64,000 nucleotides of DNA from sequence record OM632671.1, one strand, 5' to 3'. Positions 754-26,137 of the stretch are shown piece after piece. The notes under the pieces are model-generated. The model saw nothing but the letters and a program-made list of their open reading frames with translations, made no database searches and was not told the origin of the DNA. The position numbers and the translations under genes were made by a program. This DNA is from Escherichia phage BEU50. Each line of letters opens with the position of its first letter. Within the stretch, counting starts at the first letter, position 1.

Positions 754-755
754 TT

Positions 756-8377: not shown

Positions 8378-8379
8378 CT

Positions 8380-8409: not shown

Positions 8410-8436
8410 TTTTCTATCAGTTAAGAGGAGAATAAC

Positions 8437-8898: not shown

Positions 8899-8905
8899 GG
8901 TAAGC

Positions 8906-9451
8906 ATGAGAAAAGCACTACTCGCTGGTCTATTGGCCATTTCAATGATGGCACATAGCTCCGAGCATACTTTCAGTAATGTCCAACTCGATAACATGCG
9001 TTACGCGTATCAATTCGGGGAACAATTTTCTAAGGATGGAAAATATAAAACACACAAAAACATCCACAAGAGCGGATTGGGTCATATAATGGCTGCTATT
9101 TTGTGGCAAGAAAGCTCTGCCGGAGTTAATTTAAAATCTAAACCAAAGCATCACGCCTACGGAATGTTCCAAAATTATTTGCCTACTATGCGAGCGAGAG
9201 TTAAGGAACTTGGTTATAATATGACCGATGCTGAAATAAAAAGAATGTTGAATAAACGATCCAATTCAGCTTCCTGGGCGTACATTGAACTTTCTTATTG
9301 GTTAAATATACATAAGGGCGATATAAGAAAAGCAATATCCTCTTATAATTCGGGATGGAATGTTAAAGCAGGTTCTAAATATGCTTCTGAAGTCCTAGAA
9401 AAGGCTAATTACCTTAAAAATAATAAACTTTTGGAAATAGTAAATGACTAA
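8906..9451 (+). CDS. secreted/periplasmic protein with signal peptide (vs.1-like position)
   Basis: N-terminal signal peptide MRKALLAGLLAISMMAHS; WQESS motif; positional analogue of T4 vs.1. Confidence 0.6.
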   Translation: MRKALLAGLLAISMMAHSSEHTFSNVQLDNMRYAYQFGEQFSKDGKYKTHKNIHKSGLGHIMAAILWQESSAGVNLKSKPKHHAYGMFQNYLPTMRARVKELGYNMTDAEIKRMLNKRSNSASWAYIELSYWLNIHKGDIRKAISSYNSGWNVKAGSKYASEVLEKANYLKNNKLLEIVND

Positions 9452-9785
9452 AATTTTGGTTTTATGTATAGGATTAATTTCATTTTCTGCGTTAGCAGAT
9501 ACATCATATACTGAAATTAGAGAGTATGTAAACCGTACTGCAGCGGATTATTGCGGGAAAAATAAAGCATGCCAAGCTGAATTTGCGCAGAAATTAATAT
9601 ATGCATATAAAGACGGAGAAAGAGATAAATCAAGCAGATACAAAAATGATACATTGTTAAAACGATATGCTAAAAAGTGGAATACCTTAGAATGTTCAGT
9701 TGCGGAGGAGAAAGATAAAGCCGCTTGTCATTCAATGGTTGACCGTTTAGTAGATTCTTATAATCGAGGATTGAGTACTAGATGA
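9444..9785 (+). CDS. small secreted protein with signal peptide
   Basis: Signal peptide MTKILVLCIGLISFSALA; Cys-containing mature part. Confidence 0.5.
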   Translation: MTKILVLCIGLISFSALADTSYTEIREYVNRTAADYCGKNKACQAEFAQKLIYAYKDGERDKSSRYKNDTLLKRYAKKWNTLECSVAEEKDKAACHSMVDRLVDSYNRGLSTR

Positions 9786-10261
9786 TTGTAAAATATATCA
9801 AGGGCGATATTGTCGCCCTATTTCTTCAAGGTAATATTATTGCGCACGGGTGCAATTGCTTCCACACAATGGGCTCTGGCGTAGCAGGTCAATTAGCAAG
9901 AGCCTATCCCAAAATTTTAGAAATAGATAAAACCACTACCGAGTACGGTTCTCGTGATAAATTAGGCGATATGTCTATTGTTTTTAAACATAGTCCTACG
10001 GGATTTGGTATATGCTATAACCTGTATACACAATACGAACCGGGTCCTAATCTTGATTATGGTGCTTTAGTAAACTGCATGATAGAATTAAATCTACAGG
10101 CAGAAACCCTTTTGTTTAAACCAGTAATTTACATTCCACGCATAGGTTGCGGTATTGCTGGTGGTGATTGGGATAAGGTTTCTAAATTAATCGACATGTT
10201 TACTCCTGATATTGATTTAATAGTGGTGGATTATGAAAGTACATTACCCGCATCCGTTTGA
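9782..10261 (+). CDS. macro-domain protein (ADP-ribose binding/processing)
   Basis: AHGCNCFHTMGSGVAGQLA and IPRIGCGIAGGDW resemble macro-domain Gly-rich phosphate-binding loops. Confidence 0.6.
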   Translation: MIVKYIKGDIVALFLQGNIIAHGCNCFHTMGSGVAGQLARAYPKILEIDKTTTEYGSRDKLGDMSIVFKHSPTGFGICYNLYTQYEPGPNLDYGALVNCMIELNLQAETLLFKPVIYIPRIGCGIAGGDWDKVSKLIDMFTPDIDLIVVDYESTLPASV

Positions 10262-10445
10262 TCCTAAAAACAAAGTGGAAATTATTCGTCAATGGGAACG
10301 CATTTGCCGTACTAAATGCCCAATTAATAGTCCACATGATGTAGATAAAGACTATATTGGAACATTCGTTGAATATACCTTTATTGATAGGAAAGGTCGT
10401 AAACAACATGTAGAAGAATATTGTTTAAAGGTTACATGGTTATGA
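10233..10445 (+). CDS. hypothetical protein (70 aa)
   Basis: ORF track only. Confidence 0.4.
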   Translation: MKVHYPHPFDPKNKVEIIRQWERICRTKCPINSPHDVDKDYIGTFVEYTFIDRKGRKQHVEEYCLKVTWL

Positions 10446-10648
10446 GCCAAACTAGTATTCTTAAAAATGCCCATTGTGAAAAGTGTAAGTGGCCGATTGT
10501 TTTTGCTTTATGTAATGATGAAATGGCTTGTGATTTCGATTATTGGTGCTATTGTTCTAATAAAGGATGCATCAATCATAAAGGTGAAGGATTTTATTCA
10601 GGATTTTATCCTTATCCTGATTTCGTTAAAGAAGGTAAACCGAAATGA
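10421..10648 (+). CDS. Cys-rich hypothetical protein
   Basis: ORF track; multiple CxxC pairs; start uncertain. Confidence 0.4.
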   Translation: MFKGYMVMSQTSILKNAHCEKCKWPIVFALCNDEMACDFDYWCYCSNKGCINHKGEGFYSGFYPYPDFVKEGKPK

Positions 10649-11009
10649 ATAGTTTTGAGTTACAATATGAAGTGTTACGTGAGCTTGATAATTTAATTGA
10701 ACTCGCTGTCAATAAAGGTTTTGCCATTGGAATCGGTCAAAAAGATACTGGTCATTTAACTATGGAAATATTTAAGCAAAAGCGAATTATTTTAAAACTC
10801 CTGGAAATTAATATATGAGTCTGAGTAAAGAATAAAAAGATAAATTGTTTGAGCTTATCCATGAACTTCTAGATGAGCATGCAGAAGCAAACACCTTTTA
10901 TGATGAATACGGCCCGCTATCTCCCGAACAGCAAGAAGAATTTGCTGATCGGTTTGATAAGAAAGAAAACGAATTAATAGCTTATGTGAATATGCTTTAA
11001 GAAGGTGAT

Positions 11010-11591
11010 ATGGCGAGTTTAATTTTTACTTACGCAGCAATGAATGCTGGAAAATCTGCTTCTCTTTTGACTGCTGCACATAATTATAAAGAACGCGGAA
11101 TGAGTGTATTAGTTCTTAAGCCTGCTATTGATACTCGCGATTCTGTCTGTGAAGTCGTTTCTCGCATTGGAATTAAGCAGGAAGCGAATATTATTACAGA
11201 TGATATGGATATTTTCGAGTTCTATAAATGGGCTGAAGCACAAAAAGATATTCATTGCGTATTTGTAGATGAAGCTCAGTTTTTAAAAACTGAACAGGTG
11301 CATCAATTAAGTCGAATTGTTGATACATATAATGTTCCTGTTATGGCTTATGGATTAAGGACTGATTTCGCTGGAAAATTGTTTGAAGGTTCTAAAGAAC
11401 TTTTAGCGATTGCAGATAAACTTATTGAACTAAAGGCAGTTTGTCATTGCGGCAAAAAAGCGATTATGACAGCTCGATTAATGGAAGATGGAACACCAGT
11501 TAAAGAAGGTAATCAAATCTGTATTGGTGATGAAATTTATGTTTCTTTGTGTAGAAAACATTGGAACGAATTAACTAAAAAGCTCGGTTAG
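11010..11591 (+). CDS. tk: thymidine kinase
   Basis: 193 aa; P-loop AAMNAGKS; matches recalled T4 Tk essentially end to end. Confidence 0.92.
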   Translation: MASLIFTYAAMNAGKSASLLTAAHNYKERGMSVLVLKPAIDTRDSVCEVVSRIGIKQEANIITDDMDIFEFYKWAEAQKDIHCVFVDEAQFLKTEQVHQLSRIVDTYNVPVMAYGLRTDFAGKLFEGSKELLAIADKLIELKAVCHCGKKAIMTARLMEDGTPVKEGNQICIGDEIYVSLCRKHWNELTKKLG

Positions 11592-11633
11592 TGCAAAAGT
11601 TATAAATAGGTTTATCTAACTAAAGGGGTATAT

Positions 11634-11846
11634 ATGCTACAATTAACTGAAAAGCAACTTCGCAATCTTACTGTTCTTCAATTAGATGAAATTCGTAGGG
11701 AAGTTGGAAATATCATTTCAGCTTTGCGTCGAGAAGTATCACTCAACCAATCTCCGGCAGACTATACTAGATTGCGAAATTTTGAAAAATACCTTGATAA
11801 AGTTAAGGCCGTGCATCGGCATAAAGTAAATACAGGACAAAAATGA
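11634..11846 (+). CDS. hypothetical protein (70 aa)
   Basis: ORF track; SD AAAGGGG upstream. Confidence 0.5.
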
Positions 11847-11858
11847 TAGGAGGCCTTT

Positions 11859-12152
11859 ATGGCCTTAAAAGCAACGGCACTATTTGCCATGCTAGGATTA
11901 GCGTTTGCTTTATCTCCATCGATTGAAGCGAATGTCGATCCTCATTTTGATAAATTTATGGAATCTGGTATTAGACACGTTTATATGCTTTTTGAAAATA
12001 AAAGCGTAGAATCATCTGAACAGTTCTATAGTTTTATGCGAACGACTTATAAAAATGACCCGTGCTCTTCTGATTTTGAATGTATAGAGCGAGGCGCGGA
12101 GATGGCACAATCATACGCTAGAATTATGAACATTAAATTGGAGACTGAATGA
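11859..12152 (+). CDS. rI: RI lysis-inhibition regulator (antiholin), signal-anchor protein
   Basis: 97 aa with N-terminal signal-anchor MALKATALFAMLGLAFALS; size and position next to tk match T4 rI. Confidence 0.7.
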   Translation: MALKATALFAMLGLAFALSPSIEANVDPHFDKFMESGIRHVYMLFENKSVESSEQFYSFMRTTYKNDPCSSDFECIERGAEMAQSYARIMNIKLETE

Positions 12153-12535
12153 AATTCAGCGACTTTTCACAAAGTGGAAAACCTTCAAAGGCAGATGAAT
12201 ACTTAGGTTTATTAATGGCTGCACAAGCTTATTTTCATTCTGCGCATTTTGAAACTAAAAGTTATGCTAGACACAAAGCATACGATTTTATTTTCTCCGA
12301 GTTGCCAGATTTGATTGATAAATTTGGTGAGCAATATTTGGGGTATTCTGGTAGAAAATACACACCTTCAATTCCAGATGCTAGTAAACTTCCTACCGAC
12401 ACAATTAAAATGATTGATCGCATACTAGACCAATCTAACAGCATTTATAAAGAAATGCCTCCAGCCATTCAAAGCACGATAGATGATATCACTGGGATGT
12501 TTTATCAGAGTAAATATCTTCTTTCCCTCGAATAA
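12149..12535 (+). CDS. hypothetical protein (128 aa)
   Basis: ORF track; overlaps rI stop. Confidence 0.55.
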
Positions 12536-12539
12536 CGTT

Positions 12540-12563
12540 AGTCTCCTTCGGGAGACTTTTTTC
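12540..12563 (+). terminator. rho-independent terminator candidate
   Basis: AGTCTCC-TTCG-GGAGACT hairpin followed by TTTTTT. Confidence 0.6.
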
Positions 12564-12630
12564 ATTTTACCGGTTTACTTTCCATTTGAGCTGTGATACT
12601 ATACAACCATCGGATAAAGAGGAGAACATC

Positions 12631-12819
12631 ATGAAAATTGAAGCACTTAATCAAGAAGGAAATATCTACGTCATCATTAATGGTGATTTTTTCGTCGACA
12701 TGGATGAAGTTACCAGTGAAGAACTTGTAGAACTTCTTAAGAAACGTTATAATATGTGTGATGAAGTTGCAACTCACATGGCGTGTGCAATATTCTCTCT
12801 TTCATATGTGGTGGAATAA
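12631..12819 (+). CDS. hypothetical protein (62 aa)
   Basis: ORF-track frame trimmed to ATG 12631 preceded by AGAGGAG. Confidence 0.5.
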
Positions 12820-13022
12820 TGAAAACTGAAAAGCAAGCGGATAAAATTAAGGAATTAGTGGCTTCAATTCGTAAAGCAGATGAAGAGCTGATTGACTTTG
12901 CTTGGTATTCATCGGGTATTTCGAATAAAGGCATTAAAGACTTTGAAACTAAAGTTGATAATGCTTTAGAAGCGTTAGATATGTTTCTTGATGAAATTAT
13001 CGATCATAATACGAGAGTTTAA
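12819..13022 (+). CDS. hypothetical protein (67 aa)
   Basis: ATG overlaps preceding stop; begins MKTEKQ. Confidence 0.5.
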   Translation: MKTEKQADKIKELVASIRKADEELIDFAWYSSGISNKGIKDFETKVDNALEALDMFLDEIIDHNTRV

Positions 13023-13024
13023 GT

Positions 13025-13219
13025 ATGCTAACACGTGAACAGTTTGAAAAAATCATTAAATTAGCACGTGATGTTGAAATAGATTCATATCAATTAGCAG
13101 TTGAGCATTGTGAAGGATATTCATACGATGGTATAGAATCAGCTAAAAGGGATTTGGATAAATCTAAAGCTAAGTTAGTCCAATATCTTGAAATGATTAG
13201 GTGGAATAATGAAAACTGA
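13025..13219 (+). CDS. hypothetical protein (64 aa)
   Basis: ORF track. Confidence 0.5.
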   Translation: MLTREQFEKIIKLARDVEIDSYQLAVEHCEGYSYDGIESAKRDLDKSKAKLVQYLEMIRWNNEN

Positions 13220-13381
13220 AAAGCAGATGTTTTTAATGAAACTAATTGAAGAATATGCTAATGCAGTTTCTGACTATGAGCGTTCTTCTCGGGAAAGAGG
13301 TACAGCTTTCGCCAAAGAAGAAATGAAAATCATGGTTGATGCTCACACAAAGCTTCAGAATTTTATTGAAAACAACATTTA
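13208..13381 (+). CDS. hypothetical protein (57 aa), paralogous start module
   Basis: Not in ORF track; begins MKTEKQ with the same 25-nt start region as the 12819 gene. Confidence 0.4.
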
Positions 13382-13384
13382 ACG

Positions 13385-13414
13385 GTTTACAAGTTGGCAA
13401 GGTTATGGTATAGT
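13385..13414 (+). promoter_or_regulatory. T4-type early promoter candidate
   Basis: GTTTAC then about 18 nt then TATAGT. Confidence 0.4.
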
Positions 13415-13549
13415 AATCTTGTCAACTGTCAAGGAGAAGAGAATGAAAGTTTTGTTTGTTGTGTATGTAATGATTCAATATAATTACCCAATGTTTACTT
13501 ATAATCTGGTGAACAACATTATTGATATTATTCAAAGGAGTATGTAATT

Positions 13550-13780
13550 GTGAGTGAGTCGAAGAGAATCAATATGAAACGATTAGTATTAGAAGTTAGT
13601 CCGCTTTTTGGTGAATTGGCTATAGAAAAAGTAAATAACATGTATCGTTTGACGCAAGAAGACGATATGCTATATTTTACGCCTAGTGAAATCATTCATT
13701 TAACCCAAATTGAATATCCTTATACTGATAAAATAGTAAGTATCAATGATGAGCACAAAATTCATTGCTCGTTTGATTGA
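13550..13780 (+). CDS. hypothetical protein (76 aa, GTG start)
   Basis: ORF track; AAGGAG upstream. Confidence 0.45.
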   Translation: MSESKRINMKRLVLEVSPLFGELAIEKVNNMYRLTQEDDMLYFTPSEIIHLTQIEYPYTDKIVSINDEHKIHCSFD

Positions 13781-13870
13781 AGTTGAAGCCCAAATTGCAG
13801 AACACACCAAATTGTTAAAAGCTCTTAATGCAAAAGCAAATGGTTTACGTAATGCTATTGAGGTATTGAA

Positions 13871-14185
13871 ATGAAAAAGCGTCTATTAGAAGACATTGCA
13901 GCTTCAAGTAATTCCAGTTTAATTAAAATTATTATGGCCGGTGAAGAAGACGATCTGGAAATGCGTGGAAAGATTTATGGTTGTGATGATTATAGCAGCC
14001 CTATTAATTGGGATTCTGTAATGGTCATGGTTGAACGTCGCGAAAGGGCTTCTAAAAACGTTCCTAATTGCCCTGAATGTGGAACTGAACAGGTGCAATT
14101 AGTCCATTGGCAGACTAATAATCTTCGTTATAAATGTCGCCATTGTAAACACCGATTTGACCGAGAAGAAAATGACAAAGCGTAA
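13871..14185 (+). CDS. zinc-ribbon hypothetical protein (104 aa)
   Basis: CPECGTEQ ... CRHCKHRF four-Cys pattern. Confidence 0.55.
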
Positions 14186-14414
14186 AGAATATATGGAGAC
14201 CGCCGAAAAGGCAGTCCGTGAATTAGCAATAGCTTATTATAATGAACACGGTAAATTTCCTGATAGATACAGCGTGCTTAAATCTGCTTTAACTCGTTCA
14301 TATAAAAATATGCTATCAGAAGTAAGTGATATTATATACAAACATAAAGAACAAACGGGCCAAAGTCTTGATTACGACGAGACTTTTAAACAAGTACTAG
14401 GAATTAAGGAATAA
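14172..14414 (+). CDS. hypothetical protein
   Basis: ORF-track frame 14157..14414 (TTG) trimmed to first ATG. Confidence 0.4.
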
Positions 14415-14415
14415 T

Positions 14416-14679
14416 ATGTTTAAAGTATATGGTTATGATAGCAACATCCATAAATGTGTGTATTGCGATAATGCAAAACGTCTTTTGACCGTGAAGAAAC
14501 AGCCGTTTGAATTTATCAACATTATGCCGGAAAAAGGTGTTTTTGATGATGAGAAAATCGCTGAGCTTCTGACTAAACTAGGTCGTGATACTCAAATCGG
14601 CTTAACAATGCCTCAGGTATTTGCTCCTGATGGAAGTCATATTGGTGGATTTGACCAATTGCGGGAATACTTTAAATGA
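14416..14679 (+). CDS. nrdC: glutaredoxin/thioredoxin (T4 NrdC type)
   Basis: 87 aa, CVYC redox motif; matches recalled T4 NrdC. Confidence 0.9.
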   Translation: MFKVYGYDSNIHKCVYCDNAKRLLTVKKQPFEFINIMPEKGVFDDEKIAELLTKLGRDTQIGLTMPQVFAPDGSHIGGFDQLREYFK

Positions 14680-14891
14680 TTCTCGAAGGAACTGATTATA
14701 TCCATGATTACCGCGGAAGCGCGGTATATGTAGGTGATGAAGTTGCAGTTTACTACGGGTATGGAACTTTGATGACAGCCAAGGTTATTCAAATTAAAAA
14801 TAATCGTGCTAAACTCGAAGTTTATTATTCTAACGGCGAAAAGTCTATTTCTAAGTGGAAATACGGCGATTGTATGGTCAAACTGGGGTAA
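14676..14891 (+). CDS. hypothetical protein (71 aa)
   Basis: ORF track; overlaps nrdC stop. Confidence 0.5.
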   Translation: MILEGTDYIHDYRGSAVYVGDEVAVYYGYGTLMTAKVIQIKNNRAKLEVYYSNGEKSISKWKYGDCMVKLG

Positions 14892-14893
14892 AT

Positions 14894-15064
14894 ATGATTT
14901 ACGATATTAGTGCAGCAAGAGCTCCATCAATGGTTGCTATTCCAGCTGAAGAATTAGATCGTCTTCATAAAATTGAAGAACTTCTGTGGGAAATTGAATC
15001 TGATTTGCCATCAGGATTAGAATCCTGGATTGATTATGAAGAACTTAATAAGCTTCGGGGTTAA
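14894..15064 (+). CDS. hypothetical protein (56 aa)
   Basis: ORF-track frame trimmed to ATG 14894 following upstream stop. Confidence 0.4.
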   Translation: MIYDISAARAPSMVAIPAEELDRLHKIEELLWEIESDLPSGLESWIDYEELNKLRG

Positions 15065-15186
15065 ACCCTGGTGGGCGGCTAGATGGGAAACTGTAGAGCC
15101 AGAGCCGGAAGAACCGGTTTACACTGATGAAGAAACAGTATATAATGAACCAACGATAAATGACTTAATTGATATGGAGATGGGAC

Positions 15187-15672
15187 ATGATTACAGTAGA
15201 TAAGTGGTTTAGAATTAATCGTGTTGATACAGGGCTATGTAATTACTGGCCGGAACTTAGTGCAGGTACTGTCTTTAAAGTTCGTGAACTTGCAAAAGAA
15301 TGTGAAGATGATATAGAACCTGATACTGGAATTATTGAAATTGAACTTTCTGATGGAAAGATTATTAACATCTATGATAAGCCAATTACGTATTGGTGCT
15401 TGTGGAATACTGAATCCGTTGAAAATGGCGAAATTGAAGAAGTTGTAGAGAGAACTAGCCAAGATGCTCAGAAGCCTAAAGCCGCTTTTCAAGGTGAACG
15501 TATTTCATACGCATTAGCTAAATTAGCTGCACAAGAAAATAACGATGGTTATGAAGGAAATTTAATGCAAGCTGCCGCAGAGTACATTGAATGGCTTGAA
15601 ACTCAAATTTCTTTTTCTGACCAAATGATTCGGCAATATAAGCGATTGCATCAAATGTTTTACAATACTTGA
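15187..15672 (+). CDS. pin: hypothetical protein, possibly protease inhibitor Pin (161 aa)
   Basis: ORF-track frame trimmed to first ATG gives 161 aa, the T4 Pin length; position between nrdC and gene 49. Confidence 0.45.
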   Translation: MITVDKWFRINRVDTGLCNYWPELSAGTVFKVRELAKECEDDIEPDTGIIEIELSDGKIINIYDKPITYWCLWNTESVENGEIEEVVERTSQDAQKPKAAFQGERISYALAKLAAQENNDGYEGNLMQAAAEYIEWLETQISFSDQMIRQYKRLHQMFYNT

Positions 15673-15708
15673 AAAAACTCAAAATTCTTTTTCTGACAAG
15701 GCATTTTA

Positions 15709-15885
15709 ATGAAAACCGAATTGGTTTATACTGAAAAGTTAAATGGCGGTAAGGTTTGGAAACTTTTTATTAAAGGACATTCTACGGACCCTCATATGAC
15801 CACTTGCGTAGGAACCTATTCTCGTCCTACTAAAAAGATGATTCGACAGTATAAACGATTGCATCGAATGTTTTACAATACTTAA
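15709..15885 (+). CDS. small hypothetical protein (58 aa) sharing its C-terminus with upstream gene
   Basis: Not in ORF track; ends ...MIRQYKRLHRMFYNT, near-duplicate of the last 15 aa of the 15187..15672 product. Confidence 0.35.
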   Translation: MKTELVYTEKLNGGKVWKLFIKGHSTDPHMTTCVGTYSRPTKKMIRQYKRLHRMFYNT

Positions 15886-15925
15886 ATAATAAATACCCTT
15901 ATCTATTTAAGGTAAGGGTTTTATT

Positions 15926-16399
15926 ATGTTATTGACTGGCAAATTATACAAAGAAGAAAAACAAAAATTTTATAATGTACAAAACGGTAAATGCTTAATT
16001 TGCCAACGAGAACTAAATCCTGATGTTCAAGCTAATCACCTTGACCATGACCATGAATTAAATGGACCAAAAGCAGGAAAGGTACGTGGATTGCTTTGTA
16101 ATCTCTGCAATGCTGCAGAAGGTCAAATGAAGCACAAATTTAATCGTTCTGGCTTAAAGGGTCAAGGTGTTGATTATCTTGAATGGTTAGAAAATTTACT
16201 TACTTATTTAAAATCCGATTACACCCAAAATAATATTCACCCTAACTTTGTTGGAGATAAATCAAAGGAATTTTCTCGTTTAGGAAAAGAGGAAATGATG
16301 GCCGAGATGCTTCAAAGTGGATTTGAATATAATGAATCTGACACCAAAACACAATTAATAGCTTCATTTAAGAAGCAGCTTAGAAAGAGTTTAAAATGA
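15926..16399 (+). CDS. 49: endonuclease VII (Holliday junction resolvase)
   Basis: 157 aa; zinc-binding CLIC...C..C; matches T4 gp49 family. Confidence 0.88.
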   Translation: MLLTGKLYKEEKQKFYNVQNGKCLICQRELNPDVQANHLDHDHELNGPKAGKVRGLLCNLCNAAEGQMKHKFNRSGLKGQGVDYLEWLENLLTYLKSDYTQNNIHPNFVGDKSKEFSRLGKEEMMAEMLQSGFEYNESDTKTQLIASFKKQLRKSLK

Positions 16400-17217
16400 A
16401 TGTAGTATATAAACTATCATTTATTAATAGAATTAATGCTAAAACCCCACCATATTATTACATTGGAAGTAAAACCAATTGCACTTTTGATGGAACGAAT
16501 ATTATTGATAAAAATGGTAAATTTTATTATTCGTCTTCGTCATCTTCTGAATTTCAAAAAGCCTTATTGAAAGAAACGCCGAAAGTTGAAATATTATATT
16601 TTCAATTAGTCGGAGATGAACAAATAACTAGCATTGAAGCTGAATTTCAAAAGAATATAGAAAAAGATGTATGGAATAAAGAGTATTTTAATTTAGCATA
16701 TGCTGATGGCAAATTTACGACATATGGTATTTCTCCTTCTAAAGAAACTAGAGAAAAGCAATCAATAACCATGATTAAAAGAAATCGTAATAAAGGCAAA
16801 AATCATGGATTTTATGGAAAGCATCATACTAATTTAGCTAGAAAGAAAATATCAGAAGCTTCTAAAAAATACTGGAAAGAAAATCCACATCGTGGATTTT
16901 CGCATACAAAGGAAGCTAAAATTAAAATTGGAATTTCATCTTCTATCAGGCATAAAGGAAGTGGAAATCCGATGTATGGTGTAAAACCTTGGAAAACTCC
17001 GAGCGCAATTAAATCTGGTACTTGTATATTATGGTTAAAATACGCAGAAATTTTATATGATTATTTAAGTCCAGATTTTAAAAGTAAATCATCTATTTTT
17101 GCGGATTTAAACTTACCGAAATTTAGAATTGATAATTTCATCAAAAGGTTTAAAATGGGTTGGAACCCATATTTAGACGAAGAATTTCAAAAGGATAAAT
17201 TAGAATTATGTCTTTAG
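16396..17217 (+). CDS. GIY-YIG homing endonuclease (seg-like, free-standing)
   Basis: N-terminal VYKL...PYYYIGS GIY-YIG module; downstream basic helix repeats; start and stop overlap neighbouring genes. Confidence 0.75.
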   Translation: MNVVYKLSFINRINAKTPPYYYIGSKTNCTFDGTNIIDKNGKFYYSSSSSSEFQKALLKETPKVEILYFQLVGDEQITSIEAEFQKNIEKDVWNKEYFNLAYADGKFTTYGISPSKETREKQSITMIKRNRNKGKNHGFYGKHHTNLARKKISEASKKYWKENPHRGFSHTKEAKIKIGISSSIRHKGSGNPMYGVKPWKTPSAIKSGTCILWLKYAEILYDYLSPDFKSKSSIFADLNLPKFRIDNFIKRFKMGWNPYLDEEFQKDKLELCL

Positions 17218-18205
17218 AAAAAGATGTTTTAAATTTTATTTCAAATAAAGATAAAGAATTAAATACAGAAAACGCCAACAAAGATTCTCGCGTCTTTCCA
17301 ACAAAAAGAGATTTAATGGCCGGTATTGTTTCTAAACATATCGCTTGTCGTATTCTTCCAAGTCATATTGTAAATGCCCATAATGTTGGATTAATTCATT
17401 TTCATGATTTAGATTACAGTATATCATTGCCTTTTACTAATTGCTGTTTAGTAGATTTAAAAGGAATGCTTGAGAACGGGTTTAAGCTCGGTAATGCACA
17501 GATTGAAACTCCTAAATCAATCGGTGTTGCTACTGCAATTATGGCACAAATTACTGCACAGGTTGCTTCTCACCAATATGGCGGAACTACATTTGCTAAT
17601 GTCGATAAAGTACTTTCTCCTTATGTTAAACGCACCTATGCAAAACATATCGAAGACGCAGAAAAATGGCAAATCGCCGATGCGTTAAATTATGCTCAAT
17701 CTAAAACAGAAAAAGACGTATACGATGCATTCCAAGCTTATGAATATGAAGTAAATACTCTCTTTAGTTCAAACGGACAGACTCCTTTTGTAACAATTAC
17801 ATTTGGTACAGGAACTGACTGGACTGAACGAATGATTCAGAAAGCAATTCTGAAAAATCGTATTAAAGGTCTTGGTCGTGATGGGATAACTCCTATTTTC
17901 CCTAAGCTTGTTATGTTTGTTGAAGAAGGTGTTAATCTTTATAAAGACGATCCGAACTATGATATTAAGCAGCTTGCTCTAGAGTGTGCAAGCAAAAGAA
18001 TGTATCCTGATATTATTTCAGCTAAGAACAATAAAGCTATCACTGGTTCATCTGTTCCTGTTTCTCCAATGGGTTGCCGTAGTTTCTTGGGCGTATGGAA
18101 AGATTCGACTGGTAATGAAATTCTTGATGGACGTAATAATCTTGGCGTTGTAACACTGAATCTTCCTCGCATCGCGTTAGATTCTTATATTGGAACACAG
18201 TTCAA
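17208..18205 (+). pseudogene. nrdD: anaerobic ribonucleotide reductase NrdD, 5' portion only (truncated near codon 333)
   Basis: N-terminal two-thirds of class III RNR; frame then runs into reverse complement of gp37 start; no glycyl radical C-terminus. Confidence 0.8.
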
Positions 18206-18340
18206 TCCTGAGTCATCTTTTGTGAAAATTGTTTTATCTTTTAAGTTTATAGCCAATTCACCTTCGGCTAATACTGAAGCAGCAGGACGTTGACCTGCAG
18301 TTTTGCTTCTTTTAAATTGTATTTGTTTTAAAGTAGCCAT
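18206..18340 (-). pseudogene. 37: distal long tail fibre gp37, N-terminal 44-codon fragment
   Basis: Minus-strand [45 protein letters not shown] matches T4 gp37 N-terminus, then diverges and stops within 6 codons. Confidence 0.7.
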
Positions 18341-18348
18341 AAGTCCTC

Positions 18349-18999
18349 TTAATAATAGCCGAAATCTTGAACAGAATCCTTAATTACGATTTGGTCAAAT
18401 CGTGGAACGTGTGAAGGTTGAGATGCAGGATTCTGTGAAAAAAGGTTTGGCGCAGTTAAATTTCCTGTCATAGTGTCTCCAGAGCGTAATACCCTAGAGT
18501 TTGCATTTGCTGTAACAGTATTTATTGCTCCATCAACATAATCTTTACGAGTAGCATCTGATGCTGCGGAAGGAGTAGATGTAACAGTTACAGATGGAGC
18601 CGTTACAGCTTTGGTAAATGTTGTCAAACCTTCTGGCGTAATAGTAATTTGTCCAGTAGTGATTTCACTACCTGCTGGTCTAAAACTAATACCGCCAGAA
18701 GAGCCACCAACTACAAGAGTATTACCAGTGCCGCCACCAGAACGAATTCGGATGGGGGTTTCATTATTACTTAATTGAAGATAACTATTTACACCATAAT
18801 TAATAGTAACTGGGCCTGTGTAAGTACCACCAGTAGATTTAGAAACGAAATCATTATCAGCTGCCTGTGGTTTATTATATTCTGAATATATTTTAAATGA
18901 TTTGTAGAGTACATCGTCACCGGCTGAATTCAACGGAAAATTTCCTTGATGCCAAATGACAGATCCACCTACAGTTGAACCTCCTTTTAAATCAGCCAT
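18349..18999 (-). CDS. 36: long tail fibre distal connector gp36
   Basis: 216 aa; position between gp35 and gp37 fragment; T-even gp36 family. Confidence 0.85.
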
Positions 19000-19022
19000 A
19001 GTATGCCCATTTATTTTAATAT

Positions 19023-19030
19023 TATTTATA
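19023..19030 (-). promoter_or_regulatory. late promoter TATAAATA (gene 36)
   Basis: TATTTATA on plus strand, 24 nt upstream of gp36 ATG on minus strand. Confidence 0.5.
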
Positions 19031-19055
19031 AAGAAAAAAGGAGCCCGGCGGCTCC
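19031..19055 (-). terminator. rho-independent terminator candidate after gene 35
   Basis: GGAGCC-CGGC-GGCTCC hairpin followed on minus strand by TTTTTTCTT. Confidence 0.55.
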
Positions 19056-19061
19056 CTCAGT

Positions 19062-20177
19062 TTAAACTTCTCTAAATTCCTGTCCAAACACTTTACCAGT
19101 TTTAGACGATGCCTGTGTAGGAAGTACCATTATATCTGGAGGTGAAGCCGATTCACAGACATAATTAACGCGAATACCATTGACGCCAAATTCGGCAGGT
19201 TTTGAAATGCCGCCATTTCTTGATACTTCAGAAAAGCTTAAATTTCTCATACCGCCTTGACCCGCTTGGGCGGTTCTCTGTGTGTATATCGTAAATCCTA
19301 CTGCATTTTCAGGAACAACTACATAATCTTCTTTTAATTCCCAAGACCCAGCTTGCCCAGTAAACTCAGCTTGGGTCGAGGAAATATATCCATTTGATGC
19401 ATCATAAAAACGAATAGATATATTTGCAGTTCCAAGATCAAGTAAATCAGCATCAGCATATAGTTGTGCTTTAAGATAAAGAACATCACCAGGAATTAAA
19501 TTGTAGTCAGAAAGTTTACTTATAGCAGCTGAAGTTGGTAAACGCGCAATTTCATTATTAGTTCCACCAACCGCAGACATAAATTGCTCAACGCTTTCGT
19601 ATGTTCTTTTAGGAAATCCTGTAGCTCCGACGTCTTCTAAACTATCAAATACAACATCTAAAATAGTTTGATAATCATCTGTGCTTTTTCTATTACTTAG
19701 TTTAACATGCTCTAATGCAATAGCTCTTTTAGAAGAAGTATAAAAAGCAGCATATGACACGTCAAATCTTGACAATACTGAATCTGATGGAAAAACTGAA
19801 GTTCCTGCTCCCCTTAACCAAGATACCACTTCAGGAGGAAAATTAACCTTTCCGCTAGTTAATATAGCAACAAGTCTATTGTTTGACAAAGAATTCATGA
19901 AACTGACAAAAGTGGTAGATGTTGTATTGTTTGAAGCAGAAAAAGCATATGACTTACTATCAACTAATGCTCCCGTAGAAGGGTCAAAAACTCTTAAATG
20001 AAGACCTGCACTAAATGTTTGATTTCCAACGGGATTATCCTGAAATTTAACATATGGTCCCGCAGTAGAAAGCGGGCAAGAACCCGCTATGCTTATTTTA
20101 TATCTTACTGAATTGCTTTCCGATAAAAATGGCGTTTGGACATATCCTTGTCCAAACTCTGCCATAAATTTTTCCAT
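19062..20177 (-). CDS. 35: long tail fibre hinge connector gp35
   Basis: 371 aa; synteny between gp34 and gp36. Confidence 0.85.
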   Translation of the reverse strand: MEKFMAEFGQGYVQTPFLSESNSVRYKISIAGSCPLSTAGPYVKFQDNPVGNQTFSAGLHLRVFDPSTGALVDSKSYAFSASNNTTSTTFVSFMNSLSNNRLVAILTSGKVNFPPEVVSWLRGAGTSVFPSDSVLSRFDVSYAAFYTSSKRAIALEHVKLSNRKSTDDYQTILDVVFDSLEDVGATGFPKRTYESVEQFMSAVGGTNNEIARLPTSAAISKLSDYNLIPGDVLYLKAQLYADADLLDLGTANISIRFYDASNGYISSTQAEFTGQAGSWELKEDYVVVPENAVGFTIYTQRTAQAGQGGMRNLSFSEVSRNGGISKPAEFGVNGIRVNYVCESASPPDIMVLPTQASSKTGKVFGQEFREV

Positions 20178-20185
20178 AATACCTC

Positions 20186-23100
20186 TTATTCAACCCATTC
20201 AAATTTAACAGTTTTATTCACTGGGTCAGGAATAATGCGAACATTACCAATTCGTAAGAAATCACGAATAGTAAGATTACCTATTATTCCATTATCAGAT
20301 GGGATTGCTCCTATATCCGAAGGTTGAGGAGGATTACCTCCATCGAATACCTGAACAAAACTTGACCAAGAGTTTTTGGTTTTCTGCCATGTACGTGTCC
20401 AGCGAGTGGTACGTGCTTCTGGGGTCGTTGGATAAGTAATCCAATCTTGGTAAAGTGAATCAAGTGTGTTACCAAACTGAGTCAATGTACCAGGAGATTT
20501 AACTTCTTCACCGCGTTCTAAATATGGAAGTCCAGTCACTTCATTAGTTTTTTCAACCATTTTAAAATAACCCGGGAACTGGTTATAAGTGGCTGAATCA
20601 TTAATATCGATTGACCAGAATCCTACAGTATCAGATGTTGGCGCACGGGTATATAAATCAGATGTTTTAACACCTTGAGAACGAATTCTCGAGTTAACAG
20701 TTAAACCGCCTGAACTTATAGTAGCACCTTTTGCAATGATTAAGCTTTCACCAATCGTTACTTGGCCAGATGCATTATTAATAGATAAAGGACGTAATCC
20801 ATTAAATCCGCCAGTTTGATCACCCGATGCAGTAAGCATAAAATTCGTTACTGACCCATCATTGCGAACAATGAAACCATAATTTCCGTTAATAGCACGG
20901 AAAGCATTTGCGCTTCGAGAAATAATTTCACCAGTTGCAGTGACTGAATTACCAAATGTTGCTACACCATTTGCATTCAATGTTCCTGAAGCATTAACAT
21001 TTATCGGTGTTACTGTACCGTTGATATTAAATGTTATATTTCCAGCTTTATTACGCTGAGAATAAAAATGACTAGACGTTTCATCACTAACTTCAAATAC
21101 GGTAGAACGTGTTGTGTCTGATTCCCCACTAAATTGATTTCCCCACACTCTGACTGTCATCGTTTGAGCCGGGTTTGTTCCAGTTTGAGGTCCTTTCTCA
21201 AAAATCAATCGAGTTGCCGTTCCAGTATTAGAAATAGTTAATGTACTATTTGCTGAAACTGATCCACCGAATGTAGCAGTACTAGATGATACAAGAGGGG
21301 CACTCAGATTCGTTTGTTGGGTTAAGGTTAGTGAACCATTAACTGTTTGTGCAATGTCCCTACGAATGAACTGGAGCGAATCTAGACCATCTAATAAATT
21401 ACTATCTACAGCTTTTGCTTTTAATGGCAAATAATTTGCTAATACGCGATTTAATTCATATGGTGATACTGCATAACCATTTTTCTCATATGATTCTAAT
21501 GGTTGTGTTGAACCTACCGTATCATTACCAACGAATGTAATTGAACCAGATGAAGTTTTAACAAACCCTCTTATCAGAGTAGTTGCTGCCCAAGTTGGTT
21601 CACTCTGCACAATCCATTTTAAATTTTTTGGAGATACAGCAGTATTTGCTGATGTTCCAGTCACAGTTTCAGACTGAGTTGCAACTTTAATAACACCTTC
21701 CTGTGCTTCAGTAGATTTAGTACCTAAAAGCTTTTTAGGAGTTATTAAAACATTATCTAATGTTCCTGCAGCAGCTTCAACTTGTGTAGCTACACGAAGT
21801 GTACCACGCTGTGTCTCATTTGCTTCAAGAATATTAAGTGTATAATGGTCCCAGAGAGTTCCTGATTCAACTAATCCAGATAGAGCAACAACAGAAGTAC
21901 GATCAGTACTATTAAATCTAGTTTTAATTTTTAATGGTGTAGAGATGCGAGTATCGTCGACGCCTGCGTCGAATTCAACTTGCGTAGCAATTTCAGCTAT
22001 ACCACTTAAACTTTCAGTTGCTCTACGGTCATTTAAAGTTTTAGGAGTGACTGCACGAGTATAGTCAGTTCCTGTGTTAACTTCACTTTGCGTAGCAATT
22101 TCAATTAAACCAATTCTTCCATCAGTTGATGTCTTTTTATGTAACGTTTCTGGCGTTACAACCGCATTTGCCCATCCTTCTTGGCTTTGTCCAGCAATTA
22201 CTTCACTTTCAACTGCTAAAATTACTGCGCCTTGTTGCGTTGGAGTAGCTTTATACTGATCCAAAGCTTTAGGTGAAACAACTAAATTATTAGTGTTTTT
22301 ATTATAAACATTCGTACCATTTAATTCACGGCTAGAAGCTGGAGTAGCTCCTGCAGTAGATACATAAGTTACAATACCAGATAATGATTCAGAACCTTGG
22401 CGAGCTTGAAGCTTTTTAGGAGTGATGATTGTAGTATCATCAGTACCTGTATTAGTTTCCTGCTGCGTAGCAATTTCAGCGACACCTCTACGAGTTTCTG
22501 TAGCAGTTCTTTCATTCAGCTTTTTAGGAGTGATGATAAGGTCATCTGCAAAAGAGAATGTGGTGTTCTGATTCACTTGAGCAGTAGTTGCTATTCTTGC
22601 AATACCTCTGCGAGTTTCTGTAGCAGTACGATTAGCTAACGTTTCTGGAGTAATTGCTAATTCTTTTTGTGGAGAATTTTCTAAATCAGCATTTGCTTGA
22701 GCTTGCGTAGCTAAAGCAATTACGCCTAATCTTGCTCTAGTAGAAGCATTTAAAGAGTCTACTCTTTCTACAGTTGGAACGTTTTGCTGTACAACCCAGC
22801 ATTTTCCATCAGAATCTTCTATATAAGCAAGTTGTAAAACTGGAACATAATTAGTTTCACCGTTAAAAACTAATTCTTGAACTGTTACCCATTCAGCTTC
22901 AGGCGGATATTCTGAACGTTTTGGGAATTGCAGCAATTGAACTGAGGAAGCAATTTTATCTTCACCTGCAGCTTTGATTTTAACTGTTTGTCCTTTTCTC
23001 ATGTAATTCATGGAAATTTTAACAGTATCACCAACAGAAATATCAGTCGGAAGCTGAAGTTCAATTGTTTGGGTTGTTCCATTATTCGCGCCAAATACCA

Positions 23101-24055
23101 TGACTTCTTCATTTGGACGAATATTAGAATTAGTTGTTATAATGCGTAAACGTGCTTTACTATCCCCGTCAAACAATCTCCACAATTTCTCATTATCATC
23201 AAACATCAAGAAACCGTCAATCGATGTACGGCCTTCAATGGAATGAGTTCCAACTTCTTGCACTGACGTTGTTTCATCATATGTCGTAACAATTGTATGA
23301 TAAAGTGGATTTAATTTATCTAAATCAACGAAATTAATGATATCTCCATGATTGGCAAATCTTGGAAGCTTAACATTAATCGGCGCGGCAGAAGTAAATC
23401 TACGTACGATAAAATCATTAGATTGTGCTTGATATGCAGTCGATGGAGTAACAATCGCAGCTTCTCTGCTATAATCAGCAATATACATTTGCCACAAACG
23501 ATTATTAAAAATGAATACCATCTGTGACTTTGGATGAGTCATTAAAACTGAACGTACCTGTTCACCTCTAAAATTGACAATACTCTGATTTGAAGAATTT
23601 ATTTTAACCTGATTTATGCCAGGTTTTCCACCGATATCTTGAATTATTACGGTTTCTCCATCAAGCGGAGAAGGTGGTAAAGTAAACTCAATGTCATTGC
23701 CAACTGATGTATCTACTGAAATTGCTTCTCCGGATTTTAATTGATATGGTCCAGATGATACGGTTGTATATACAGCATCAGTACGTAATGCTTTCCAACG
23801 AATTCTATTAAAATTTCCAGCAGGTTTTGGAATATTATCCGTTGCTGCCCAAAAACGATTATTATAAATGATTACAAAATCTTTTAAATATCCACGAGTT
23901 GGATCATATTGCTGAACTGTGTTTTCTTGAATTAAGTAATCAACGTTAACACCGTCAGTTCCTACGGTACGATCAGCTAAAGCTACGTTGATTATTTTAT
24001 CGCCACCTGCGTCCAGACCATCTTCTGCTCTGAACTTTCTTTTAATCTCGGCCAT
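20186..24055 (-). CDS. 34: long tail fibre proximal subunit gp34
   Basis: 1289 aa; N-terminus MAEIKRKFRAEDGLDAGGDKIINVALADRTVGTDGVNVDYLIQ and C-terminus KTVKFEWVE match T4 gp34. Confidence 0.92.
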   Translation of the reverse strand: MAEIKRKFRAEDGLDAGGDKIINVALADRTVGTDGVNVDYLIQENTVQQYDPTRGYLKDFVIIYNNRFWAATDNIPKPAGNFNRIRWKALRTDAVYTTVSSGPYQLKSGEAISVDTSVGNDIEFTLPPSPLDGETVIIQDIGGKPGINQVKINSSNQSIVNFRGEQVRSVLMTHPKSQMVFIFNNRLWQMYIADYSREAAIVTPSTAYQAQSNDFIVRRFTSAAPINVKLPRFANHGDIINFVDLDKLNPLYHTIVTTYDETTSVQEVGTHSIEGRTSIDGFLMFDDNEKLWRLFDGDSKARLRIITTNSNIRPNEEVMVFGANNGTTQTIELQLPTDISVGDTVKISMNYMRKGQTVKIKAAGEDKIASSVQLLQFPKRSEYPPEAEWVTVQELVFNGETNYVPVLQLAYIEDSDGKCWVVQQNVPTVERVDSLNASTRARLGVIALATQAQANADLENSPQKELAITPETLANRTATETRRGIARIATTAQVNQNTTFSFADDLIITPKKLNERTATETRRGVAEIATQQETNTGTDDTTIITPKKLQARQGSESLSGIVTYVSTAGATPASSRELNGTNVYNKNTNNLVVSPKALDQYKATPTQQGAVILAVESEVIAGQSQEGWANAVVTPETLHKKTSTDGRIGLIEIATQSEVNTGTDYTRAVTPKTLNDRRATESLSGIAEIATQVEFDAGVDDTRISTPLKIKTRFNSTDRTSVVALSGLVESGTLWDHYTLNILEANETQRGTLRVATQVEAAAGTLDNVLITPKKLLGTKSTEAQEGVIKVATQSETVTGTSANTAVSPKNLKWIVQSEPTWAATTLIRGFVKTSSGSITFVGNDTVGSTQPLESYEKNGYAVSPYELNRVLANYLPLKAKAVDSNLLDGLDSLQFIRRDIAQTVNGSLTLTQQTNLSAPLVSSSTATFGGSVSANSTLTISNTGTATRLIFEKGPQTGTNPAQTMTVRVWGNQFSGESDTTRSTVFEVSDETSSHFYSQRNKAGNITFNINGTVTPINVNASGTLNANGVATFGNSVTATGEIISRSANAFRAINGNYGFIVRNDGSVTNFMLTASGDQTGGFNGLRPLSINNASGQVTIGESLIIAKGATISSGGLTVNSRIRSQGVKTSDLYTRAPTSDTVGFWSIDINDSATYNQFPGYFKMVEKTNEVTGLPYLERGEEVKSPGTLTQFGNTLDSLYQDWITYPTTPEARTTRWTRTWQKTKNSWSSFVQVFDGGNPPQPSDIGAIPSDNGIIGNLTIRDFLRIGNVRIIPDPVNKTVKFEWVE

Positions 24056-24089
24056 TCTCCCGGGCTCCTATTGTGTTTTCAATAATAAG

Positions 24090-24097
24090 TATTTATA
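24090..24097 (-). promoter_or_regulatory. late promoter TATAAATA (gene 34)
   Basis: TATTTATA on plus strand, about 35 nt upstream of gp34 ATG. Confidence 0.55.
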
Positions 24098-24100
24098 CTT

Positions 24101-24130
24101 GTTTACTTTAAGATTTAGATAGTATATAAT
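24101..24130 (+). promoter_or_regulatory. T4-type early promoter candidate (rnh)
   Basis: GTTTAC 24101-24106, TATAAT 24125-24130. Confidence 0.5.
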
Positions 24131-24159
24131 AGAAATCTCACTAATTGAACGAGGTTCAT

Positions 24160-25077
24160 ATGGATTTAGAAATGATGTTGGATGAAGATTACAAAGAAGG
24201 AATTTGCTTAATTGACTTTAGTCAGATTGCGCTTTCAACTGCTCTGGTAAACTTCCCAGATAAAGAAAAAATTAATTTATCAATGGTTCGTCATTTGATA
24301 TTGAACTCAATTAAGTTTAATGTCAAAAAAGCAAAAACGCTTGGATACACTAAAATTGTGCTGTGTATTGATAACGCGAAATCTGGATACTGGCGTCGTG
24401 ATTTTGCTTATTATTATAAGAAAAACCGTGGAAAAGCACGAGAAGAATCTACTTGGGACTGGGAAGGTTATTTTGAATCCAGCCATAAAGTTATAGATGA
24501 ATTGAAAGCTTATATGCCATACATTGTTATGGATATTGATAAGTATGAAGCAGATGACCACATTGCTGTTCTTGTTAAAAAGTTCTCTTTAGAAGGACAT
24601 AAGATTTTAATCATTTCATCGGATGGTGACTTTACACAGCTTCACAAATATCCAAATGTTAAGCAATGGTCACCGATGCATAAGAAATGGGTTAAAATTA
24701 AAAGCGGTTCTGCTGAAATTGACTGTATGACTAAAATCCTTAAAGGCGACAAAAAGGATAACGTTGCTTCAGTTAAAGTACGATCTGACTTTTGGTTTAC
24801 CAAAGTTGAAGGTGAACGGACTCCTTCAATGAAAACTTCAATCGTTGAAGCTATTGCTAATGATCGTGAGCAAGCTAAGGTGCTTCTCACAGAATCTGAA
24901 TATAATCGTTATAAAGAAAATTTAGTTCTAATTGATTTTGATTATATTCCTGATAATATTGCTTCAAACATTGTGAATTACTATAATTCATATAAATTAC
25001 CACCGCGTGGCAAAATTTATTCATATTTTGTAAAAGCGGGTCTTTCTAAATTAACTAATAGCATTAATGAATTTTGA
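24160..25077 (+). CDS. rnh: RNase H (5'-3' exonuclease, FEN family)
   Basis: 305 aa from ATG 24160 (ORF-track 24145 is TTG); MDLEMMLDEDYKEGICLIDFSQIAL matches T4 RNase H. Confidence 0.9.
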   Translation: MDLEMMLDEDYKEGICLIDFSQIALSTALVNFPDKEKINLSMVRHLILNSIKFNVKKAKTLGYTKIVLCIDNAKSGYWRRDFAYYYKKNRGKAREESTWDWEGYFESSHKVIDELKAYMPYIVMDIDKYEADDHIAVLVKKFSLEGHKILIISSDGDFTQLHKYPNVKQWSPMHKKWVKIKSGSAEIDCMTKILKGDKKDNVASVKVRSDFWFTKVEGERTPSMKTSIVEAIANDREQAKVLLTESEYNRYKENLVLIDFDYIPDNIASNIVNYYNSYKLPPRGKIYSYFVKAGLSKLTNSINEF

Positions 25078-25085
25078 GGTGAATA

Positions 25086-25355
25086 ATGGCTAAAAAAGAA
25101 ATGGTTGAATTTGATGAAGCTATCCATGGCGAAGACTTGGCTAAATTTATTAAAGAAGCATCTGATCATAAACTGAAAATTTCCGGTTATAATGAACTGA
25201 TTAAAGATATTCGAATTCGTGCTAAAGATGAACTTGGCGTTGATGGTAAGATGTTTAATCGTCTATTAGCTTTGTATCATAAAGATAACCGTGATGTGTT
25301 TGAAGCTGAAACTGAAGAGGTAGTTGAACTTTATGACACAGTTTTCTCTAAATGA
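25086..25355 (+). CDS. dsbA: double-stranded DNA binding protein DsbA
   Basis: 89 aa; size and position between rnh and gene 33. Confidence 0.7.
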   Translation: MAKKEMVEFDEAIHGEDLAKFIKEASDHKLKISGYNELIKDIRIRAKDELGVDGKMFNRLLALYHKDNRDVFEAETEEVVELYDTVFSK

Positions 25356-25671
25356 CATTCGTCCGGTCGATGAGACCGGTCTTTCAGAAAAAGAACTTTC
25401 AATTAAGAAAGAAAAGGATGAAATAGCAAAGCTTCTTGATCGTCAAGAAAATGGATTTATTATTGAAAAAATGGTAGAAGAGTTTGGAATGAGTTATCTT
25501 GAAGCTACAACAGCATTCTTAGAAGAAAATTCTATTCCTGAAACTCAATTTGCTAAATTTATTCCTTCGGGTATAATTGAAAAAATTCAGTCAGAAGCTA
25601 TTGACGAAAATCTTTTACGTCCTTCTGTTGTTCGTTGTGAAAAAACTAATACATTAGATTTTCTACTATGA
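25333..25671 (+). CDS. 33: late transcription co-activator gp33
   Basis: 112 aa from ATG 25333 (MTQFSLNDIRP...); C-terminus ...TLDFLL. Confidence 0.75.
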   Translation: MTQFSLNDIRPVDETGLSEKELSIKKEKDEIAKLLDRQENGFIIEKMVEEFGMSYLEATTAFLEENSIPETQFAKFIPSGIIEKIQSEAIDENLLRPSVVRCEKTNTLDFLL

Positions 25672-25727
25672 TTAAACTCCGCATGCCTGCTGGTGGTGAA
25701 AGATACATTGATGGTAAATCAGTTTAG
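25668..25727 (+). pseudogene. 59: helicase loader gp59, first 19 codons only
   Basis: [19 protein letters not shown] matches gp59 N-terminus, then TAG; ATG overlaps gp33 stop. Confidence 0.6.
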
Positions 25728-25810
25728 TGAGTATTTTGATAATAAAATTTCTACAGTTAAAACTTCTTCTGATTGTTACTATGATATTACTGTTTTGACG
25801 GAAAAACAAT

Positions 25811-26137
25811 ATGTTGAATTATCACCGCGCGGGCCGTCTATGCCGGGTAGTGAATAAATATAAATCCGACTTTGATGTTAATATTCACCGTGGTACATTT
25901 TGGGGAAATTACGTCGGTAAAGATGCTGGCAGCCGGGAGGCTGCCATTGAATTATTCAAAAAAGATTTTATACGTCGAATTAAATCCGGAGAAATAACTA
26001 AAGCACATTTAGAGCCTTTACGTGGAATGAGGCTAGGATGCACATGTAAACCAAAGCCGTGTCATGGTGATATAATAGCTCATATAGTTAACCGACTGTT
26101 TAAAGACGATTTTCAAGTTGAGGACTTATGCAATTAA
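25811..26137 (+). CDS. conserved hypothetical protein (DUF4326-like Cys/His motif)
   Basis: [12 protein letters not shown] motif; overlaps nrdA start. Confidence 0.55.

Follow-up and report, generated by a model that had tools for sequence, protein, structure and literature searches.

In phage T4, deletions are known whose ends share short homology or none, as are joins mediated by topoisomerase, and the known viable T4 deletions concern only non-essential DNA of one genome. T-even phages also show mosaicism and homing co-conversion, and in tail-fiber swaps of genes 37 and 38 the distal part of gp37 is substituted together with gp38. Abrupt joins between two related genomes are encountered as well in chimeric or concatenated drafts from mixed samples, the usual short-read chimeras switching within shared sequence. 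The junction described here lies in a stretch of 64,000 nucleotides (nt) of the sequence record OM632671.1 (Escherichia phage BEU50), which was analyzed over its full length and is referred to below as the window. In it a truncated nrdD gene, for the class III (anaerobic) ribonucleotide reductase NrdD, abuts on the opposite strand a truncated gene 37, for the long tail fiber distal subunit gp37. Sequence comparison indicates that this junction is most probably a non-biological join and that the window is a composite, mis-joined or concatenated from a mixed Mosigvirus and Tequatrovirus source; the joins would have been made when the sequence was assembled or handled, rather than in a phage.

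The switch from nrdD to gene 37 is clean base by base. Alignment with T4 locates the break at 18206/18207 with an overlap of 0–1 nt, the T at 18206 being compatible with both sides: nrdD similarity ends at window position 18206 (T4 44354), and gene 37 similarity begins at 18206 (T4 156676) and runs downward. Reference nrdD alignments, comprising T4, Killian, and five metagenomic contigs (L010–L014), all end exactly at window position 18206. The initial annotation, according to which nrdD matches for about 333 codons and then reads the reverse complement of gp37 from about 18206, is thus confirmed to that base, with 333 of 605 nrdD codons present. It had further described a gp37 fragment of 44 codons; the fragment exists, although tblastn gives its length as 45 codons, T4 gp37 residues 1–45 matching at 18340..18206 with 93% identity. 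As had also been stated, the open reading frame (ORF) of this fragment stops six codons past the break, reading ...TKDDSG, then LNCVPI and the stop. The separation of nrdD and gene 37 in T-even phages, put earlier at about 100 kb, is roughly right, the two breakpoints being separated on the circular T4 map by 112.3 kb in one direction and by 56.6 kb in the other. The reported loss of gene 38 and of most of gene 37 holds within the window, where tblastn leaves gp38 unmatched and recovers only residues 1–45 of gp37; the only other gp37 match in the window is weak (27% identity), lies inside gene 34, and was judged not genuine. A break due to nrdD intron homing or I-TevII was considered for this junction and rejected: the intron insertion site, placed from T4 (exon 1 end at 45850, exon 2 start at 44814), is retained intact at 17743–17746, and the junction lies 460 nt downstream of it.

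The initial annotation had one junction, and the window contains three more of like kind. Mapping on T4, on Mosigvirus a20, and by 500-nt tiles on both resolves positions 1–64000 into five blocks, here labeled S1, S2a, S2b, S3, and S4, which are separated by four sharp junctions within 18.4 kb (J1, J1b, J2, and J3, of which J2 is the nrdD–gene 37 junction; Table 1). Each junction cuts ORFs on both sides, and the microhomology at each is 0–3 nt and imperfect. In T4 coordinates the successive blocks run 6.4–0.15, 63.8–57.6, 49.0–44.35, 156.7–149.1, and 143.1–106.4 kb, so that the collinearity of the T-even map is broken. Tiles from 1–7346 and from ∼29000–64000 are 98–100% identical to a20, and those from 7347 to ∼28900 are mostly 90–100% identical to T4 (lower in variable stretches such as the tail-fiber genes) and mostly 65–88% identical to a20. 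The simplest description would be a Mosigvirus backbone, S1 plus S4, carrying at 7347–25726 an insert of 18,380 nt made up of three non-contiguous Tequatrovirus pieces. These 18,380 nt replace the backbone interval from the rIIA C-terminus to nrdA.2, which spans ∼25 kb in a20 and there contains rIIB, denB, ndd, 52, motA, asiA, t, 38, 37–34, rnh, 33, 59, 32, frd, and td. The window is free of Ns and of long repeats, and an Rfam scan of it at the gathering threshold returned no matches.

Table 1. Blocks, junctions, and genes in the window.
Feature	Position	Strand	Length	Description	T4 coordinates
S1	1..7346	+	7346 nt	Mosigvirus, goF to rIIA	∼6.4 to 0.15 kb
S2a	7347..13766	+	6420 nt	Tequatrovirus, vs.6 codon 31 to mobD.1 codon 68	63828 to 57624
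S2b	13767..18206	+	4440 nt	Tequatrovirus, nrdC.3 codon 274 to nrdD codon 333; order nrdC.3', nrdC.2, nrdC, pin, small ORF, gene 49, homing endonuclease, nrdD codons 1–333	49045 to 44354
S3	18207..25726	-	7520 nt	Tequatrovirus, gene 37 codon 45 to gene 59 codon 19; contains 37', 36, 35, 34, rnh, dsbA, 33, gene 59 codons 1–19	156676 to 149138
S4	25727..64000	+	38274 nt	nrdA.2 codon 46 onward	143081 to 106432
J1	7346..7347			Mosigvirus rIIA' to Tequatrovirus vs.6 codon 31; no microhomology	63828 (vs.6 side)
J1b	13766..13767			mobD.1 codon 68 to nrdC.3 codon 274	
J2	18206..18207			nrdD codon 333 meets gene 37 codon 45 on opposite strand	
J3	25726..25727			gene 59 codon 19 (+2 nt) to nrdA.2 codon 46; no microhomology	
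Homing endonuclease	16396..17217	+	273 aa	Free-standing, between gene 49 and intron-less nrdD; overlaps nrdD start by 10 nt	
nrdD fragment	17208..18206	+	333 codons	Codons 1–333 of 605, intron-less, without glycyl-radical domain	
Out-of-frame tail of nrdD ORF	18207..18293	+	28 codons + stop	Read off the antisense strand of gene 37	
Gene 37 stub	18185..18340	-	51-aa ORF	Codons 1–45 (18340..18206), then 6 antisense-nrdD codons and stop	
Gene 36	18349..18999	-	216 aa	Intact, T6/PST-like; DNA 99.6% to T6 and PST; Pfam Phage_T4_gp36	
Gene 35	19062..20177	-		Intact; 95% amino-acid identity to T4 gp35, full length	
Gene 34	20186..24055	-	1289 aa	Intact; 91% amino-acid identity to T4 gp34, full length	

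Individual alignments end at the other three junctions as well. At J1, vs.6 residues 31–120 begin at 7347 by tblastn; a microhomology of 6 nt hinted at by BLAST extension was discarded, the alignment showing it to be an effect of gapping. Alignments to Killian and to one IMG/VR contig end at 7348 and 13766, and the whole of S2a, which runs from vs.6' via regB, vs, tk, and rI to mobD.1', aligns contiguously with Killian at 96.6% and with IMG/VR contig L019 at 96.7%. J1b skips ∼8.6–9.2 kb that relatives carry, and its interpretation as natural variation in the nrdC region, which is known to vary, was rejected, since no phage record spans 13766. At J3 the remainder of gene 59 together with 32, frd, and td is missing, and the alignment to Mosigvirus FL18 breaks at 25726/25727, starting exactly at 25727.

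None of the four junctions was found to recur, either in a collection of 50,697 phage records or in IMG/VR. Of the phage records, 0 of 854 that match the 221-nt query across J2 cover 80% of it, and 0 of 497 span J1b. IMG/VR contains none of the exact strings that bridge the four junctions; J2 was not found in JGI metagenome contigs, GTDB genome contigs, or complete E. coli genomes; and none of the three chimeric ORF products occurs among indexed gene products representing 153 billion gene positions. Exact-protein look-ups of gp34 and gp36 were also negative. Strain-specific 40-mers of S2a and S3 retrieve from IMG/VR only relatives at 96.7–98%, whose alignments likewise end at the segment ends, and the complete relatives examined all keep the canonical gene order. 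A literature search on Mosigvirus/Tequatrovirus recombinants yielded nothing relevant.

Queries with T4 gp38, t, AsiA, MotA, gp52, RIIB, gp32, Frd, NrdG, and gp43 find no match in the window by tblastn, and eight genes (gp37, gp59, vs.6, mobD.1, nrdC.3, nrdA.2, rIIA, and NrdD) are present in it as fragments only. The parts of gp37 beyond residue 45 and of gp59 beyond residue 19, together with gp38, t, asiA, motA, gp52, rIIB, gp32, and nrdG, are expected in the replaced interval of a Mosigvirus backbone, yet are absent from the window. Genes 37, 38, 32, motA, and asiA are needed for T4 growth. To propagate, a genome built in this way would need intact copies in some other part, and all eight fragments would then be superfluous remnants. 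Because the fragments are undecayed (98% protein identity for nrdD, 100% DNA identity for the gene 37 stub), the truncations appear to be recent or artificial.

An artefactual origin is favored because the joins are numerous, closely spaced, and private to this sequence, the pieces come from two genera, essential genes have been lost, and the fragments are undecayed. The features that would be expected of concatenation, of scaffolding, or of chimeric reads, namely sharp joins lacking homology, more than one contributing genome, truncations without decay, and private joins, are all present. A sample or lysate containing both phages could have supplied contigs, scaffold pieces, or reads that were then mis-joined, and candidate routes include concatenation of contigs or spacer-free closure of scaffold gaps, circularization of an incomplete contig, chimeric long reads, or another in-silico step. 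The contact between nrdD' and 37' would then be merely the end of S2b meeting the start of S3. The positions 7346, 13766, 18206, and 25726 are all 6 modulo 20, which makes the piece lengths (6420, 4440, and 7520) multiples of 20; in a simulation such a pattern has p ∼0.001, or ∼0.004 when a 1-nt ambiguity is allowed, values that refer to a regularity noticed post hoc and are uncorrected. This spacing is a weak hint at an in-silico step, and standard file or line widths do not account for it.

Several observations nevertheless weigh against mis-joining. A De Bruijn graph assembler makes a false join only through a shared k-mer, and none is present at any of the four junctions; therefore a specific step would be needed, such as chimeric long reads, spacer-free concatenation, or stripping of gaps. 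A De Bruijn chimera formed through a shared repeat was accordingly rejected as a candidate, the overlap being 0–1 nt at J2 and ≤3 nt elsewhere, with no consistent pattern of shared 21-mers at the flanks. All five pieces have one orientation on the T-even map, two of the skips are short and forward (8.6 kb and ∼5–6 kb), and S3 is placed where the 37–59 region of the backbone itself belongs. This layout is tidier than random concatenation would produce and is equally what deletions or template switches could leave on a real molecule. The pieces moreover carry private single-nucleotide polymorphisms, and parents at 100% identity are not in the collections searched, so the window was not stitched together from those public records.

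The same uniform orientation, short forward skips, and syntenic position of S3 for genes 37–59 are what could be expected of a real but defective Mosigvirus–Tequatrovirus hybrid molecule, formed in co-infection by joins independent of homology and dependent on a helper. Candidate mechanisms are the end joining of fragments produced by nucleases, illegitimate recombination mediated by topoisomerase, and serial template switching during recombination-dependent replication; the microhomology of 0–3 nt is compatible with illegitimate recombination, and the same window contains a genuine inter-genus exchange at nrdA/nrdB. However, a molecule lacking gp37, gp38, gp32, gp59, gp52, motA, asiA, and t cannot propagate alone, a defective minority species would not normally turn into the assembled consensus, and four independent illegitimate events on a single molecule, all within 18 kb, would be extreme. 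A second instance is also absent from the collections searched, and a hybrid of this kind is therefore considered unlikely. A viable natural phage with a rearranged genome, having full copies of 37, 38, 32, 59, and nrdD outside the window and retaining the fragments as leftover partial duplicates, is extremely improbable. Although the window covers only 64 kb of what would be a genome of ∼168 kb and thus leaves room for such copies, eight genes are cut mid-codon or mid-domain without decay, hundreds to >1000 T-even records matched each query and none of them across a junction, and every complete relative examined is canonical in order. A natural T-even mosaic boundary was likewise rejected for J2, which joins non-homologous positions, lies within ORFs, and does not recur.

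Deliberate construction in the laboratory or by design, for example of a genome from polymerase chain reaction fragments, would account for pieces of an amplicon-like 4.4–7.5 kb with lengths that are multiples of 20, but it is very unlikely: no plan can be made out in the joins, which destroy the genes to either side, the product would be non-functional, and the junctions carry no vector, marker, scar, or overlap sequence. The initial annotation had offered a recombination or deletion junction or an assembly or construction chimera, and of these the chimera is favored here. The alignments refute the view that a T4-like genome, normal in other respects, suffered one large deletion from nrdD to gene 37. 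The flanks are indeed oriented as a deletion spanning the rII end of the map would leave them, but such an event would have removed 56.6 kb of T4-equivalent map with the DNA polymerase and most replication genes, including 43, 41, 61, 44, 45, 62, 46, 47, 55, 42, and 56; the part of the lost interval from goF to rIIA is in fact present at 1–7346, in its Mosigvirus version; and the window has three further junctions, sequence from two genera, and a block order that is not collinear.

The genes on either side of J2 show what the mis-joining would have severed. Residues 1–333 of the product of the nrdD ORF (17208..18293, + strand, 361 aa) are 98% identical to the intact 605-aa NrdD of a metagenomic T4-like contig, after which all similarity ends. 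The ORF covers positions 1–293 of the 562 of the Pfam NRDD model; the Pfam Gly_radical domain, which occupies residues 481–585 in the intact homologue, was not found in it. Both in length and in the lack of an adjacent nrdG it departs from what would be expected of a functional class III reductase, and the fragment is predicted to be unable to work because the glycyl-radical domain is absent and the window has no nrdG. The homing endonuclease upstream of nrdD is found as an identical protein on 13 public contigs, some of which have an intron-containing nrdD. On those contigs that reach far enough, a complete nrdD, either of 605 aa or split by an intron, comes after the endonuclease, and nrdG comes next, in most cases separated from nrdD by an HNH gene. 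The context of the endonuclease and nrdD in S2b thus appears normal, and the arrangement of endonuclease, full nrdD, and nrdG would be the one from which S2b was cut.

Further upstream in S2b, at 15676–15837, a small 58-aa ORF (15709–15885, + strand, phrog_3272) is inserted between pin and gene 49. The ORF is flanked by a duplicated 23-nt motif and a ∼60-nt copy of the pin 3' end, and the ORF and pin end alike, in ...MIRQYKRLH.MFYNT, by virtue of the copied pin 3' end. The ORF is not found in T4, Killian, or six public contigs.

On the other side of J2, bases 18207–18320 have 100% DNA identity to gene 37 of many phages. A long tail fiber distal subunit would be expected to have ∼1000 residues and a C-terminal receptor-binding region, with gene 38 next to it; the sequence at this locus provides none of these, and the 45-residue stub is predicted to be incapable of forming a tail fiber. 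Genes 36, 35, and 34, which follow it in S3, are intact (Table 1).

The Mosigvirus flanks are largely unremarkable in their alignments. S1 is a single 7346-nt alignment to a20 at 98.5% and only 68–79% identical to T4; its genes by PHROG assignment are goF, an unsplit gene 39, a homing endonuclease gene, a 366-aa ORF, and rIIA, which breaks off after codon 678 of its 737. The topoisomerase II large subunit at 1245–3065 (+ strand) is one 606-aa ORF of the RB69 type, which T4 splits into genes 39 and 60. S4 contains nrdA.2', nrdA, and nrdB with an intron and an HNH gene, and continues onward to genes 24/23. Its 25 kb from 29000 to 53999 form an unbroken alignment with a20 at 98.5% and align at 97.5–98.5% to many other Mosigviruses, and from ∼29000 onward S4 is ordinary Mosigvirus. 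The nrdA.2–nrdA stretch (25727 to ∼28400) is T4-like, with nrdA 98% T4-like on the Mosigvirus backbone, and Mosigvirus FL18 has the same T4-like nrdA contiguous with Mosigvirus DNA. Within nrdB exon 1 (28500–29000), beside the intron, T4-like and a20-like sequence alternate in patches at homologous positions. Both the T4-like nrdA.2–nrdA stretch and this switch look natural, as in an inter-genus exchange or a co-conversion around the nrdB intron.

Between the nrdB halves (28444–29133 and 30178–30711) lies a full-length 269-aa HNH endonuclease gene (29264–30073, + strand), assigned to phrog_12324, 'intron-like DNA endonuclease'; T4 has at this position only the defective I-TevIII. Rfam gives no match to a group I intron at nrdB at the gathering threshold. 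Three more free-standing homing endonuclease genes are located in the Mosigvirus parts, at 3050–3862 (+), 57261–58043 (-), and 63205–63864 (+), the latter two of which are not at those sites in a20.

As a discontinuity in the sequence the junction was correctly observed, with low biological interest. If the joins are artefactual, their significance is that of a quality warning: the first ∼26 kb of the window would be unfit for inferring gene order, host range, or gene content, and the source record would probably go back to a sample containing both a Mosigvirus and a Tequatrovirus. If instead the window represents a true molecule, it would record multi-step illegitimate recombination between two T-even genera and bear on the scavenging of excluded phage genomes in co-infection, the fragments perhaps coming from the excluded phage. 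Such a molecule would stand as the equivalent in phages of complex chained rearrangements and would have been abundant enough to assemble.

Compared with described systems, the nrdD–gene 37 junction shares individual features with several. Gene 37/38 tail-fiber swaps also break just after the conserved N-terminal part of gp37 that attaches to gp36; here, however, nothing replaces the distal part and gp38, and the neighbor is antisense nrdD. T-even mosaicism and homing co-conversion have a genuine example in this window at nrdA/nrdB, whereas the nrdD'/37' join is non-homologous, intragenic, and non-recurrent. The T4 deletions that arise by illegitimate recombination, as in rII or by the action of topoisomerase, resemble the present case in their sharp breaks, their microhomology of 0–3 nt, and the direct orientation of their flanks, but differ from it in that here essential genes are lost, two genera are involved, and four events are chained. 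Chimeric or concatenated drafts from mixed samples have in common with the window abrupt, clustered, homology-free joins of two related genomes, truncation on both sides of the joins, missing essential genes, and joins that are not shared with other sequences. The window departs from the usual short-read chimeras in the lack of any shared k-mer, in its uniform orientation, and in its partial synteny. On balance, drafts from mixed phage samples, whether chimeric or concatenated, match the window most closely.

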